Shown piece by piece: positions 1 through 4,932 of a DNA stretch of 6,600 nt. The notes beneath the pieces were generated by a model that made no database searches, was not told the origin of the DNA, and worked only from the letters and a program-made list of their open reading frames with translations. Position numbers and translations under genes: made by a program. Within the stretch, counting starts at the first letter, position 1, and the number at the start of each line of letters is the position of its first letter. The stretch comes from a virus (lineage: Duplodnaviria; Heunggongvirae; Uroviricota; Caudoviricetes), in IMG/VR virus record IMGVR_UViG_2713896772_000009; one strand, written 5' to 3'.

Positions 1-2345
1 TAACCACCTTCCGCATAGCCGCGCATCAGACGGTAAAGATTCCCCACACCTATCCGGCTGGTTGCCTCTTTCGTGAAAACAAACTCCCCGCGGTGAACTA
101 TCCCCGCAGGCTCATATTTGCCGCCCGTCCCCGTAAATCCTCCGGTCGCNNNNNNNNNNNNNNNNNNGCCAATGGCGCTGCCGATACGCCCGACAATGCC
201 CACCATGGCCTGTTTAAGCAGGATTTCTGTCATCATGGACAGCACCGAACGGGTGAATCCCCGCCAGTCTGCCTCTGCACCGGTCAGCATCGCCGCCATA
301 TTCTGTGCAATACCGTCAAAGGTCTGCGTGGCCACGCTTTTAACCTGCGAAAAACTGTCCGTCGCACTTTCTGCCCACTCGCCCCAGCCGGACTTCAGAC
401 CGGCCATCCAGTCACCGCGCAGCATGTCTTCATCCGCCCATGTCTGTTTCAGTGCCCCAGTGACCCGGGCCAGCGCATCCGGATTATCACCGTACACGTC
501 ACGAAGGCGCTGCTCTTCCGACTCCCGCTGCGCCTGACGGTCGGTGAGGCCCCGCGCCTGGGCACTGATTGCCGCCTGCTTCGCGCCCTGCTGCTGCTCA
601 AACCGCGCAGCCTGCTGTGCCAGCTCATTCAGCCGTTTCTGGTGTTCAACTTTGTCTCCCAGCTCAGCCAGCTGGCGTTTGTACTCCAGCGTCTCTTTCT
701 CATGGGTCAGCAGGGATTTTTCCTGCTCAGATAACTGCCGTTTCGTGGCTGCCTCTTTCAGGACCGCATACTGATTTTCCGCTTTCCATAAATCGCGACG
801 CTGCTGGCTGATTTTCCCATTCGCACCGCTGTGTTTTTCCAGCGTCCGGAGCTCGGTTTCAAGCGCCAGCAGAGCCTCTCTTGCCTGCTCCTCTTCCCTC
901 TCCCCGGCAGAGCGCGTTTTCGGTGATGTATGCTTTTTACCTGTCAGCTCTTCAGCCAGACGGCTGACGGCTTCCTGCTGCCCAGGACCTTTGCTGACGC
1001 CTGTTGCACGCGAGCGGTTGATGTACCCCATTTCCCCCTGGCGTATACGCGCATCCCGTTCCGCAATGGATTTTCTCAGCGCCAGTTCATCGCGTTTTGT
1101 TTTCTCAATAAATACGCGGTTCTCTTCTGCCAGTTCACCAAACAACGCACCAACGCCGGGCACATTCTTTGTCGTTTCCCAGGCTGACTGAATAAATTCA
1201 GCCAGCGCCAGATCCCCCTGCACAAGCAGCAGCTTCACTTGTTCAACGGTTCCGGCCACCACGTCAGTGATCAGACTGAGTGCCCCCAGTGTATGATCAC
1301 CTATCCATGCCCATGCGTCAGAAGTCCAGGTTTTAACATCGTCCCAGATTTTTTCCACCGGCGTGGCCGCTTTATCAAGTTGCTCCAGACGTGCATTCAT
1401 GACATCCGCAAACAGGGACATCGCCTCCGTCACCGCAGCCTGTTTACCTTTCGTGCGCTCAAGCTCATCAATATGGCGTAACTGGGAAACGCTCAGGAAG
1501 TTATACTGCTGATTCAGGGAGGCCAGCGCCTTCACCGGATCTGCTGCAATCCCTTCAAAGGCTTTTTCCACCTTCCCGGCATCGTCCCCCACCGTCTGCA
1601 GCCATCTCTGAGAGGTTTCCCCCATGATCCGTAGCTGCCCGGCGGTATATTTCCCGCTTTCTGCCAGACGGGCCAGATTTTCTGCCGCCTGTCTGATACC
1701 ACCACCGGCTTCATCGCTGATCACCCCGGCCATTTTCCACAATTCTGCCGTTGTGGTGGCAGCCGCCCCTCCGGTCAGGATCAGTGAACGCAATAAGGCC
1801 CGGTCAGCCTGCTCTGCCTGCCAGGCGGCGGCAGCAAGCGCGGCCAGTACGGCAACCCCGCCACCTGCCGCCACACGGGCCACCGACATAAATCGTCCCA
1901 GCTCACCGGCATTCCGGGCATTTTCAGCCAGTGCATTTGCCGTATCTGACAGCGACTCCTCTGATGATTCAGAGGCATCCCTGATCCCGAGAAGTTCCTC
2001 CTTCAGCAGGGTAAGCAGGCTGAGCGGTCCACCGAATGAATCGCTGATCTGCCCCCCCTGCTGCAGCATGATAAGGAAGGGATTCTGACCACCGGCAAGC
2101 TGAGTGACAATATCCGTGAACTGTGCGGGCAGTGTGCGCATGGCAGCCTTATACTGTCCGACTGATATCCCGGCTTTTTGTGCAGCCAGCGCCTGTCGGC
2201 TCAGCCCCTGTTCAACAGTACTGGCGGTTTTTCTGGCATCCGCCTCCAGACTGGAAAAATGACGGTGTACCCGGGCCATCTGTTCATCAAACCGGGCCGC
2301 ATCCAGACTCAAATCAATAACCAGATCACCCGCTGGCTGGGACAT
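1..2345 (-). CDS. H: Tail tape measure protein (lambda gpH-like), 3'-truncated by the window start; interrupted by an 18-nt N run at 150-167
   Basis: Own minus-strand translation from ATG at 2343-2345 gives MSQPAGDLVIDLSLDAARFDEQMARVHRHFS..., which matches the lambda gpH N-terminus as I recall it. The frame stays open to position 1 (spot-checked near 1000, 1800 and 1-170), ending ...GEFVFTKEATSRIGVGNLYRLMRGYAEGG, again like lambda gpH. GGAGG Shine-Dalgarno (complement of 2354-2358) sits 8 nt upstream. Absent from the ORF track because no stop codon lies in the window. No other minus-strand ORF in the same frame appears in the track across 1-2345. Confidence 0.9.
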   Translation of the reverse strand, partial: MSQPAGDLVIDLSLDAARFDEQMARVHRHFSSLEADARKTASTVEQGLSRQALAAQKAGISVGQYKAAMRTLPAQFTDIVTQLAGGQNPFLIMLQQGGQISDSFGGPLSLLTLLKEELLGIRDASESSEESLSDTANALAENARNAGELGRFMSVARVAAGGGVAVLAALAAAAWQAEQADRALLRSLILTGGAAATTTAELWKMAGVISDEAGGGIRQAAENLARLAESGKYTAGQLRIMGETSQRWLQTVGDDAGKVEKAFEGIAADPVKALASLNQQYNFLSVSQLRHIDELERTKGKQAAVTEAMSLFADVMNARLEQLDKAATPVEKIWDDVKTWTSDAWAWIGDHTLGALSLITDVVAGTVEQVKLLLVQGDLALAEFIQSAWETTKNVPGVGALFGELAEENRVFIEKTKRDELALRKSIAERDARIRQGEMGYINRSRATGVSKGPGQQEAVSRLAEELTGKKHTSPKTRSAGEREEEQAREALLALETELRTLEKHSGANGKISQQRRDLWKAENQYAVLKEAATKRQLSEQEKSLLTHEKETLEYKRQLAELGDKVEHQKRLNELAQQAARFEQQQGAKQAAISAQARGLTDRQAQRESEEQRLRDVYGDNPDALARVTGALKQTWADEDMLRGDWMAGLKSGWGEWAESATDSFSQVKSVATQTFDGIAQNMAAMLTGAEADWRGFTRSVLSMMTEILLKQAMVGIVGRIGSAIGXXXXXXATGGFTGTGGKYEPAGIVHRGEFVFTKEATSRIGVGNLYRLMRGYAEGG
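150..167. other. Run of 18 ambiguous bases (N): assembly gap or masked bases inside the H coding region
   Basis: Directly visible in the sequence. Reading frame of H is the same on both flanks (...GRIGSAIG / 6 X / ATGGFTGTGGKYEPAG...). Confidence 0.95.
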
Positions 2346-2802
2346 ATCTCACACCTCCGGAAATCCCCGCTGAAGCCATCATTAATGCAACATCATCCTC
2401 GCTGACATCCACCACATCCGCAGAAGGTGAAATATCGCGCCCTCCGTCCCCTCCGAACCGGACGCCTCCGGCAACTCCTGTCGCTTTCTGCATCAGCATT
2501 TCTTCCTCGTCCGGCATCTCCGTCTGCTCTTCCTCACACGCTGGAGCAAGCAGACTGAAATCCGCCGGATGCATATCCGGATCGCCAAAAAACAGGCTGA
2601 GTACGGCGTACATCAGCCCGGAAAAATGAGCGTCCAGTTGGGTATCCTGAAAATAATGCGTGCAGTAAAAACGTCGCCAGTCGGCATATTCGGTGGATGT
2701 CATCCCGGCAAGCATGGCGCGCCAGTCGGGTCTCCCCATCTCTCGCGCCAGTTTCAGGACAAAGTTCAGCTCGCCTTCGAATGCTTTTTTGATGTTACCG
2801 GC
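2326..2802 (-). CDS. T: Tail assembly chaperone T-frame segment, expressed as the C-terminal part of a G-T fusion via programmed -1 frameshift (not independently initiated)
   Basis: Track ORF 2326..2739 (137 aa, acidic C-terminal half) lies in the -1 frame relative to G. That frame is open upstream to the TGA at 2803-2805 and overlaps the last ~12 codons of G. Its position between G and H matches the lambda G/G-T arrangement. The internal ATG at 2737-2739 has no convincing Shine-Dalgarno motif. Confidence 0.8.
   Translation of the reverse strand, partial: AGNIKKAFEGELNFVLKLAREMGRPDWRAMLAGMTSTEYADWRRFYCTHYFQDTQLDAHFSGLMYAVLSLFFGDPDMHPADFSLLAPACEEEQTEMPDEEEMLMQKATGVAGGVRFGGDGGRDISPSADVVDVSEDDVALMMASAGISGGVRYVPASG
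2354..2358 (-). promoter_or_regulatory. Shine-Dalgarno (GGAGG) for H
   Basis: Complement of cctcc, 8 nt upstream of the H ATG at 2343-2345. Confidence 0.6.
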
Positions 2803-3188
2803 TCAGTCGCTTCTGCTTTCCCGGTTTGTTCAGGATCGGCATCGTGCCGGTTATCCAGCATACCTGAAAGATAAAGCACCCGGTTCGTTGCCTGATTCAG
2901 TGCATCAGCAGGCCATCCCAGCATCACTTCACGGCGGATCTGCTGCATCTCTGTCTCCGGAGAGGCCAGAGTGCCTTTGAGGGAATGGGAATGCCATAGC
3001 GACATCGCCACAAGCAGGGATGCCGTTTCCAGATATCGCTGGTTAATGTGCACGACATCATGCTTCGTTGTCTCCTGTTGTTCTGCGTCTGAAACAAACT
3101 TTATATAATCAAACCGCTGCAGCGCAGACAATTCGGAAAGCGTGACGGACACACCGTTATATTCAAATTGTTCTGTTTTCAGAAACAT
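2766..3188 (-). CDS. G: Tail assembly chaperone (lambda gpG-like), 140 aa
   Basis: Track ORF beginning MFLKTEQFEYNGVSVTLSELSALQ..., recalled similarity to the lambda gpG N-terminus and same length (140 aa). ATG at 3186-3188 with GGAGG (complement of 3195-3199) 6 nt upstream. Lies immediately downstream of V. Confidence 0.9.
   Translation of the reverse strand: MFLKTEQFEYNGVSVTLSELSALQRFDYIKFVSDAEQQETTKHDVVHINQRYLETASLLVAMSLWHSHSLKGTLASPETEMQQIRREVMLGWPADALNQATNRVLYLSGMLDNRHDADPEQTGKAEATEPVTSKKHSKAS
2784..2790 (-). promoter_or_regulatory. Candidate -1 programmed ribosomal frameshift slippery heptamer A_AAA_AAG (G to G-T)
   Basis: Minus-strand sequence ...ACA UCA AAA AAG CAU UCG... puts AAA AAG (Lys-Lys) in the G zero frame, preceded by A. 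A -1 slip continues in the T frame as A-F-E-G-E-L-N-F-V-L-K-L-A-R-E-M-G-R-P-D-W... with no stop. It lies 5 codons before the G stop, within the G/T overlap. Confidence 0.7.
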
Positions 3189-3194
3189 GTATTA

Positions 3195-3199
3195 CCTCC
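3195..3199 (-). promoter_or_regulatory. Shine-Dalgarno (GGAGG) for G
   Basis: Complement of cctcc, 6 nt upstream of the G ATG at 3186-3188, between the V stop (3202-3204) and the G start. Confidence 0.6.
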
Positions 3200-3201
3200 G
3201 T

Positions 3202-3954
3202 TTACCCTGCAGCGCCCGCTTCAGTAACGGTGACTTCAGCCACTGCGGCGAACTGACCATTTCCGCTCACCACAGGGATCTGCACCTTACCTGTCGCCAC
3301 GCCGTTTACCGTAATTGTCATATCTTTCACACTAATGGTGGCTTTCGACGGATCGGCGGAAACCGCTCTGAACGTCTTGTCGGTTGCACTTTCCGGCTCA
3401 AAAGAAACCGTCAGGGTGGTTGTTTTCCCTTTTGCCACCGTACCGGATGTCGGCGTCACCTTAATCGCAGTGACCGGCGTAATTTTGCTGCGTTCTTCCG
3501 CTACAGAAGGTTTGCCCACGTTGGTCACTTTCACCGTGCGGGTGATCACTTCTTTCGCCGTCACGGCCTTACCGATACTGCTGACCCAGCCACGGAACAC
3601 ATCCACCGTGCCATTTGGGAAACGGATTTTATAGGCCCGCACATCCCCGCTTTCAAACCAGCCTATAAGCCCTTTCTGACCTTCTTCTCCCGGTTTCCAG
3701 GCCAGCGTAAAACTGGTATCTCCTGCAGACTTCTGCCCCTGCCCGGTCGCGGTCCAGTCCGCGTCTTCATCATCCAGGTAGTTATCATCGTAGGGTTCTG
3801 CCGTCATCTCGCCCGGCGTCAGATCCTTCACCTTAGCCAGTCGCTGCCAGTCATCGTCTGACAACGGGTTTGCATAAGCATCACCCTTGCCGTTGTAAAC
3901 CCACAGAGTGGTACCGGCACCTTTTACCGGCTCAAGGGGATTTGGTGTTGCCAT
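3202..3954 (-). CDS. V: Major tail tube protein (lambda gpV-like), 250 aa, with C-terminal Ig-like region
   Basis: Track [39 protein letters not shown]...[39 protein letters not shown]... closely resembles lambda gpV as recalled. The C-terminal ~90 aa is rich in T/V/S/K (...[63 protein letters not shown]), typical of a Big_2/Ig-like decoration domain. GAGGA Shine-Dalgarno upstream overlaps the U stop. Confidence 0.93.
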
Positions 3955-4357: not shown

Positions 4358-4932
4358 CGCTTTATTACCATTCTCAGTTGATGCTGCAGCGCATAGCCCA
4401 GCTCTTTCGGAAGACGTTCACGCCGTATCCGTTCAATATTCTGTTTAAACGCCGTGGTAAGCGGCACCGCCATCGGGATTTTCACCACATCAATGGGGTA
4501 ACGGTTTTTCCCGGCCACACGCTGCATGACATGCCACCGCCCATTTTTCAGTTGCTGAATAAACGCGCCGGGAATACGACGGTTTCCCACCACAAGCACG
4601 CTGCCGCCACCTTTCAGGGATGAACGCTGCCCCTTTTTACGACGCCTGCGTCGGGACAGGACAACCCGCGCATTCCCCAGCTTGATTACGGGCAAATCCC
4701 CCCGGTTAACCTTGATTCTGGCCTGCGGATTTTTAACCGTGGCCCTTTTCAGCCTGGCCCTTTCCTTTACCAGTTTCCGGCGTACCTTTGTCTCACGGGC
4801 AACCTGTGACGCAGACTGCGATATCGCGGATGAAGCAACGCGGTTAATGGCCATTGCTGACGCACCGGGCACCGCCGTTTTGCTGATACGGCTGAGGTTT
4901 TCAACGGCCTGCTCAAGACCTTTTATGGCCAT
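4354..4932 (-). CDS. Z: Tail completion protein (lambda gpZ-like), 192 aa
   Basis: Track ORF MAIKGLEQAVENLSRISKTAVPGASAMAINRVASSAISQSASQVARETKVRRKLVKERARLKRATVKNPQARIKVNRGDLPV... matches lambda gpZ as recalled, with the same length (192 aa). AAGGGGG Shine-Dalgarno upstream. Position between FII and U. Confidence 0.93.
   Translation of the reverse strand: MAIKGLEQAVENLSRISKTAVPGASAMAINRVASSAISQSASQVARETKVRRKLVKERARLKRATVKNPQARIKVNRGDLPVIKLGNARVVLSRRRRRKKGQRSSLKGGGSVLVVGNRRIPGAFIQQLKNGRWHVMQRVAGKNRYPIDVVKIPMAVPLTTAFKQNIERIRRERLPKELGYALQHQLRMVIKR

Follow-up and report, generated by a model that had tools for sequence, protein, structure and literature searches.

A probable -1 frameshift site, A_AAA_AAG, at the G-T junction of a lambda-like Stx1-type Escherichia coli prophage

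Tail gene cluster and identity of the prophage

We analyzed a 6,600-nucleotide stretch of viral DNA (IMG/VR record IMGVR_UViG_2713896772_000009; hereafter, the window), whose minus strand carries tail and neighboring genes in the same order as phage lambda (E, FI, FII, Z, U, V, G, T, H). The G and T reading frames lie between the genes for the major tail protein (V) and the tape measure protein (H) and overlap at the junction under study, where we identified the features listed in Table 1. The product of G matched Pfam family PF06894 (Phage_TAC_2; E = 6.5e-35, residues 1-123), which is the family of the lambda gpG protein, and aligned to lambda G without gaps over 140 aa with 43% identity. The T-frame part matched the family of lambda T (PF06223, Phage_tail_T, minor tail protein T; E = 1.2e-11) and shared 69% identity with the lambda T part. 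When aligned as DNA, the two loci had a divergent G body and a well conserved T, and the heptamer AAAAAAG marked the boundary between them.

Table 1. Features of the G-T junction and its neighbors (window coordinates)
Feature	Coordinates	Strand	Evidence
Gene V, major tail protein, upstream neighbor	3202..3954	-	ORF list; RefSeq annotation of identical locus
Shine-Dalgarno GGAGGT, 5 nt before the G start codon (ATG)	3194..3199	-	Direct reading
Gene G, tail assembly chaperone, zero frame, 140 aa	2766..3188 (stop included)	-	ORF list, translation, PF06894, 43% identity to lambda gpG
G/T overlap, bounded by T-frame TGA (2805..2803) upstream and G stop downstream	2766..2802	-	Three-frame translation
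Slippery heptamer A_AAA_AAG; P-site AAA = K134, A-site AAG = K135	2784..2790	-	Phase, alignment to lambda GGGAAAG
T-frame (-1) extension, 152 codons, first GCA (2784..2782), stop 2328..2326	2326..2784	-	PF06223, conserved residues
Candidate stimulatory structure, two nested helices	2707..2775	-	MFE, RNAalifold, one covarying pair
Internal ATG at which databases begin a separate 'T' gene; unlikely to be a true start	2737..2739	-	No spaced Shine-Dalgarno, Phe in relatives
Gene H, tape measure protein, downstream neighbor; first base 2345, overlapping the end of T; continues beyond the window	1..2345	-	Frame open for 781 codons; annotation

The window is part of a lambdoid, Stx1-type E. coli prophage. 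Its G-T region was 100% identical to prophages of many Shiga-toxin E. coli (serogroups O26, O111 and O103) and shared 99.9% identity with Stx1a-converting phages, among them LC645428. In a search of 5,426 complete E. coli genomes, an 86-nt probe centered on the site hit the allele 1,445 times. The 644 genomes that carry it have a median of two copies each and include Shiga-toxin strains of serogroups O157, O26, O111, O121 and O145. Even the O121 and O157 copies, which are more divergent, have the same heptamer, and the codons AAA AAG were kept in all IMG/VR matches of the site pattern (69/69).

Some copies differ from the window downstream of the junction. VT1-Sakai, ASU11, Stx2_95 and the O157/O121 copies have the same G allele and heptamer, but their T ORF measures only 309 nt from the ATG (414 nt in the window) and is separated from H by a gap; RefSeq describes the shorter T of the VT1-Sakai-type copies as 'missing C-terminus'. 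Within the tape measure gene of the window, an 18-N run of masked or unresolved bases spans positions 150-167. Further, the minus strand of H has a run of seven G at 2052-2058 that is six G long in the near-identical copy of E. coli E2865. This single-base deletion explains why the E2865 tape measure gene is listed in RefSeq as a 'frameshifted' pseudogene. The difference in run length may reflect a mutable homopolymer or an error in the assembly.

The probable slip site and its variants

The heptamer reads CTTTTTT on the plus strand of the window and AAAAAAG on the coding (minus) strand. It falls within codons 133-136 of G (UCA AAA AAG CAU) in the exact X_XXY_YYZ phase of a slippery sequence (A_AAA_AAG). 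Direct reading agreed with the preliminary description of this locus, which had placed a heptamer in this codon context and phase at 2784-2790. In the -1 frame, a TGA stop at 2805..2803 is followed by an open stretch that begins at 2802, crosses the heptamer and ends with the T stop. A -1 slip would join residues 1-135 of G to 152 residues of the T frame in a product that, as computed from the frames, has 287 aa. Frame translation thus upheld the earlier proposal of an open -1 frame leading into the T ORF and of a G(1-135)-T fusion of about this length. A T-frame stop between the heptamer and the T ORF, named in advance as evidence against the fusion, is absent from the window sequence.

Only within the 37 nt that separate the T-frame stop from the stop of G, with about 12 in-phase positions, can a -1 shift give a G-T fusion. 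A motif scan of this overlap identified A_AAA_AAG as its sole in-phase slippery motif. On both strands of the window we counted one AAAAAAG, with 0.92 expected by chance. Hence, the mere presence of the motif is not significant. Its phase and placement are, for the chance of finding AAAAAAG among the 12 in-phase positions of the overlap is approximately 8e-4 (rate of ~7e-5 per position).

The site coincides with that of lambda. When lambda, VT1-Sakai and the window were aligned together, AAAAAAG filled the same seven columns as the lambda GGGAAAG, and the ungapped protein alignment placed S133-K134-K135 over lambda A133-G134-K135, so that both would slip at the same codon, K135. The alignment to lambdoid G/T genes that had been recommended earlier therefore gave a clear result, with AAAAAAG in the columns taken by GGGAAAG or GGAAAAG in other members. 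The two systems have in common both Pfam families, the gene order V-G-T-H, a 140-aa G, the A_AAG tetramer and the T-frame sequence downstream. They differ in the P-site part of the heptamer, which is G_GG in lambda (Gly-Lys) and A_AA in the window (Lys-Lys), and in the length of the fusion, which has 279 aa in lambda (135 + 144); their G proteins are, moreover, only 43% identical. The lambda G/G-T frameshift was reportedly studied by Levin, Hendrix and Casjens in 1993 and by Xu, Hendrix and Duda in 2004, 2013 and 2014.

We then compared the site across the family, beginning with the window, E2865, VT1-Sakai, lambda and the 80 IMG/VR loci whose T is nearest to that of the window. AAAAAAG was present in 33 of these loci and GGGAAAG in 51, in each case as the sole in-phase XXXYYYZ motif of the overlap (33/33 and 51/51). 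More distant relatives have GGAAAAG (G_GAA_AAG) at the same position, among them Enterobacter, Citrobacter, Kluyvera, Pluralibacter and Yokenella and phages N15, phi80, mEp043, mEp460, Fels-1 and a Providencia phage. Among 80 N15-type IMG/VR loci, 79 had GGAAAAG and one GGCAAAG. The GenBank records of N15 and phi80 label GGAAAAG as a "slippery sequence for -1 translational frameshift". These two phages (gp14/gp15 in N15, gpG-T in phi80) have a homologous G (40% identity) and T, the same site position and also the candidate helix described below. Perfect -1 re-pairing is impossible for their P-site codon, GAA (Glu), whereas the heptamer of the window is fully canonical; most of the wider G-T family has this Glu codon. 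An ungapped alignment of 27 distinct sequences left AAAG, the A-site tetramer A_AAG, as the only invariant part of the site, and A_AAG is also kept in N15, phi80, Fels-1, mEp460, mEp043 and the Providencia phage. The A-site AAG is retained across the family despite being the minor Lys codon of E. coli (24%). In nearly all members the P site holds AAA (Lys), GGA (Gly) or GAA (Glu). We left out of these comparisons non-enteric genome contigs (labeled Neobacillus, Kitasatospora, Shewanella, Leeuwenhoekiella, Pseudoxanthomonas and others) with a G-T junction identical to that of lambda. Several are short or have low coverage, and the matches look like lambda DNA contamination of the assemblies.

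Because the wider family mostly carries G_GAA_AAG, the lambda G_GGA_AAG is not the family norm and the site of the window is one of three variants. This qualifies the earlier view of the locus as a conserved frameshift with a swapped heptamer: the mechanism appears conserved, but with G only 43% identical and a family that is mostly G_GAA_AAG there is no simple swap from a lambda norm. We propose that G_GGA_AAG, G_GAA_AAG and A_AAA_AAG are functionally interchangeable variants that share A_AAG. All 64 heptamers have been measured in E. coli reporters (Sharma et al., 2014; PMC4066793, Table S3). A_AAA_AAG slipped at 0.291% with no stimulator, 4.255% with the IS911 stimulators and 39.0% with the IS3 pseudoknot; the values for G_GGA_AAG were 0.277, 3.801 and 43.0%, respectively (PMC4066793). 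Given that the two heptamers were nearly equal in the three reporter contexts, their exchange should leave the G:GT ratio essentially unchanged, and it fits a neutral interchange under selection for rate. Lambda slips on G_GGA_AAG at ~4%, with a G:GT ratio of 30:1. As the bare heptamer reaches only ~0.3% in the reporter, a rate of a few percent would need context effects.

The same heptamer occurs in other systems, and the literature confirmed the two assignments on which the preliminary description had relied, namely G_GGA_AAG for lambda and A_AAA_AAG for dnaX. In their survey, Sharma et al. accepted two prophage clusters, G_GGA_AAG_4 (gpG) and A_AAA_AAG_25, the latter represented by ECs1801, a "tail assembly chaperone" whose frameshift was "safely inferred" (PMC4066793). 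Hence, A_AAA_AAG has a precedent among tail chaperones of E. coli prophages, though in another family (PF06222). ECs1801 (Sakai prophage Sp9) was considered as the gene of the window and rejected, because it belongs to PF06222 rather than PF06894 and had a BLASTP E value of 1.2. Like the G of the window, this HK97-type tail chaperone is encoded in an E. coli prophage by a gene that has A_AAA_AAG at its 3' end and is flanked by those for the major tail and tape measure proteins. It differs in its family (Phage_TAC_1) and in having the zero-frame stop directly after the heptamer. Frameshifting of 6-7% was measured for two genes of an HK97-like chaperone cluster (Antonov et al., 2013). The dnaX gamma/tau cassette has the identical heptamer, read by the single E. 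coli tRNA-Lys, with a Shine-Dalgarno-like stimulator upstream and a hairpin close downstream; it shifts at ~50% and the shift yields the shorter product. By comparison, the window has no visible upstream Shine-Dalgarno-like element, a candidate long-range stem, an expected shift of a few percent and a longer product.

Alternatives to ribosomal slippage on the heptamer

The RefSeq and GenBank records that we checked list G and T as two genes without a join, or mark T as a pseudogene, and start T at the internal ATG (2739), from which an ORF of 137 aa extends. If these separate coding sequences were correct, T would be translated from its own start with no frameshift, and the heptamer would be a chance Lys-Lys pair of the kind expected about once per window. 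Several features of the T frame argue against this annotation and make it highly improbable. ATG 2739 has no properly spaced Shine-Dalgarno sequence (GAGAG abuts the codon), and we detected no promoter-like site in the G-T region. Conservation of the T frame also extends upstream of the ATG back to the heptamer, with F2, G4, E5, L6, F8, L10, L12, A13, R14 and E15 invariant in six diverse homologues. Further, the Met at this position is replaced by Phe (AREFGRPDW) in N15, phi80, Enterobacter, Citrobacter, Kluyvera and other relatives, which therefore have no start there at all. The G-frame tail after the heptamer varies in sequence and length (HSKAS, CSTVS, SSTAS, PLPAS or just P), so the selected frame in this segment is that of T. 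Added to this are the match in position with the experimentally proven site of lambda and the low chance expectation for an in-phase motif within the 12-codon overlap. A synonymous-site test of the two Lys wobble positions of this allele found two invariant sites that were unremarkable among 34 distinct sequences, a test without power because 33-52% of the wobble sites vary in this set.

A fused product could also arise before translation, if RNA polymerase slipped on the A6 run to make transcripts one A shorter or two A longer that encode G-T. The homopolymeric A run is present and poly-A tracts are known slippage sites in the literature, but transcriptional slippage has been described as productive for runs of at least 8 nt and the run here has six. 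The lambda- and N15-type sites (GGGAAAG and GGAAAAG) have, in the same place, only 3-4 A, which identifies the tRNA re-pairing motif A_AAG as the conserved feature rather than run length. We consequently regard slippage of the polymerase as extremely improbable. Closer to ribosomal slippage on the full heptamer is a slip of the A-site tRNA-Lys alone on A_AAG, with the P-site codon (AAA, GGA or GAA) largely irrelevant. That only A_AAG is invariant across the family agrees with such a slip, as do the G_GAA_AAG sites and the one G_GCA_AAG variant, which lack perfect P-site re-pairing, and the 5.6% reached by A_AAG alone with a pseudoknot (PMC4066793). Yet full heptamers are ~7 times as efficient as the tetramer in the same reporter (39-43% vs 5.6%; the tetramer gave 0.178% with no stimulator and 5.64% with the IS3 pseudoknot) (PMC4066793), and the P-site codon is limited to the purine-rich AAA, GGA and GAA in nearly all members. 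The single-tRNA slip, which we consider unlikely, is a refinement of the main explanation and not an alternative to it: both give the same protein and sequence cannot separate them.

Other candidate slip sites were also inspected. GGGAAAG occurs on the minus strand within G (2822..2816), 32 nt upstream of A_AAA_AAG. We rejected it as a slip site: its phase is XXX_YYY_Z, the motif is not conserved (GGGAAAA in O157 SS52) and a slip there would be abortive owing to the T-frame stop that follows at 2805..2803. Gene Z carries on its minus strand in-phase A_AAG_GGG and G_GGA_AAC (window 4630-4636 and 4582-4588), heptamers with low to moderate published efficiencies; nothing suggests that these gene Z motifs are used.

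Candidate stimulators and proposed mechanism

Nothing resembling GGAGG or AGGGAG was seen in the 20 nt upstream of the heptamer (GCGACUGAGCCGGUAACAUC). The two prophage tail-chaperone clusters listed in the published survey, neither of which is this allele, were scored 'N' for an upstream Shine-Dalgarno element and as having a downstream structure (PMC4066793). The downstream structure recommended for study in the preliminary description proved to be a mixed case. The 49 nt directly after the heptamer folded worse than shuffled sequences (z = +2.35), but the 94 nt downstream were predicted to adopt a two-helix fold with an MFE of -34.4 kcal/mol (z = -2.24) and one covarying pair. The predicted outer helix (2775..2769 paired with 2713..2707) starts 8 nt after the heptamer and encloses an inner helix (2750..2744 paired with 2721..2715). 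Both helices were recovered by RNAalifold from a 27-sequence alignment, and pair counting in the same sequences scored 95.8% of the cells as paired in the outer helix and 94.9% in the inner one. The covarying pair is G-C in 15 sequences and A-U in the other 12, and so is intact in all; the inner helix does not vary and is thus uninformative. The fold was also the MFE structure in lambda, N15, phi80 and mEp043, and the outer helix reaches 10 bp in the N15 type. It was not the MFE structure in Fels-1, mEp460 and the Providencia phage PSTCR8lys, where the protein sequence differs as well. No Rfam family, whether a frameshift element or any other, matched positions 2600-2900. The conserved stem predicted to start 8 nt downstream may stimulate the slip. 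The covariation reflects perhaps two events and tracks the clades, which makes the stem a lead rather than a finding.

The phase of the heptamer, the two frames, the homology of both proteins, the positional identity with the lambda site and the conservation of the junction were observed here. Considered together, they suggest with high probability that this lambda-like Stx1-type E. coli prophage recodes its G/G-T tail assembly chaperone here, by a -1 slip on A_AAA_AAG whose rate would set the G:GT ratio. Most ribosomes would read UCA AAA AAG CAU and stop five codons later to release the 140-aa gpG. In a few percent of the passages, tRNA-Lys (mnm5s2UUU) on the P-site AAA and the A-site AAG would slip back by one base, re-pair on A_AA and A_AA and go on in the T frame to make the 287-aa G-T. 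The slipping itself is proposed from homology to lambda, the only phage in which a G-T fusion at a few percent of G is known to be needed for tail assembly. The slip rate and the role in assembly given here likewise follow the lambda literature, which is the source of the chaperone model with many gpG and few gpGT. By analogy, the tape measure protein H would be coated by many copies of gpG and a few of gpGT, whose T domain would recruit the major tail protein V; if both forms act in this way, the slip rate would fix the proportion of G to GT.

Thiolation of tRNA-Lys modulates the frameshift and yield of lambda. Two more tentative and rather doubtful extensions of the model are that the P-site codon choice is non-neutral through its dependence on tRNA-Lys and that the downstream stem (2775..2707) is a stimulator of the slip. 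On A_AAA_AAG both slipping tRNAs are tRNA-Lys (mnm5s2U34), whereas in lambda only the A-site tRNA is. If the choice is non-neutral, the G:GT ratio of the prophage would consequently depend more on the thiolation and sulfur-relay state of the host tRNA. The stem, if it acts as proposed, would raise the ~0.3% of the bare heptamer to the few percent seen in lambda.

Our literature search on G-T slippery sequences of Stx prophages retrieved nothing relevant. We found no paper or database record on the slip site of this allele, which may have been mentioned earlier by Xu et al. (2004, 2013). The notion of a conserved mechanism with a free sequence, raised in the preliminary description, is not new: later literature credits Xu, Hendrix and Duda (2004) with this now established conclusion. 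The locus is an ordinary, under-annotated member of a well known recoding family and adds little in concept. Its value is partly in annotation, because records that split G and T should describe a joined G-T product. Further, A_AAA_AAG, G_GGA_AAG and G_GAA_AAG in near-identical downstream contexts offer a natural three-way comparison that could be used to study P-site effects and a shared stimulator. The prophage thus provides one more example of an established rule, in which the G-T frameshift is kept and the slippery sequence drifts among equally efficient motifs.
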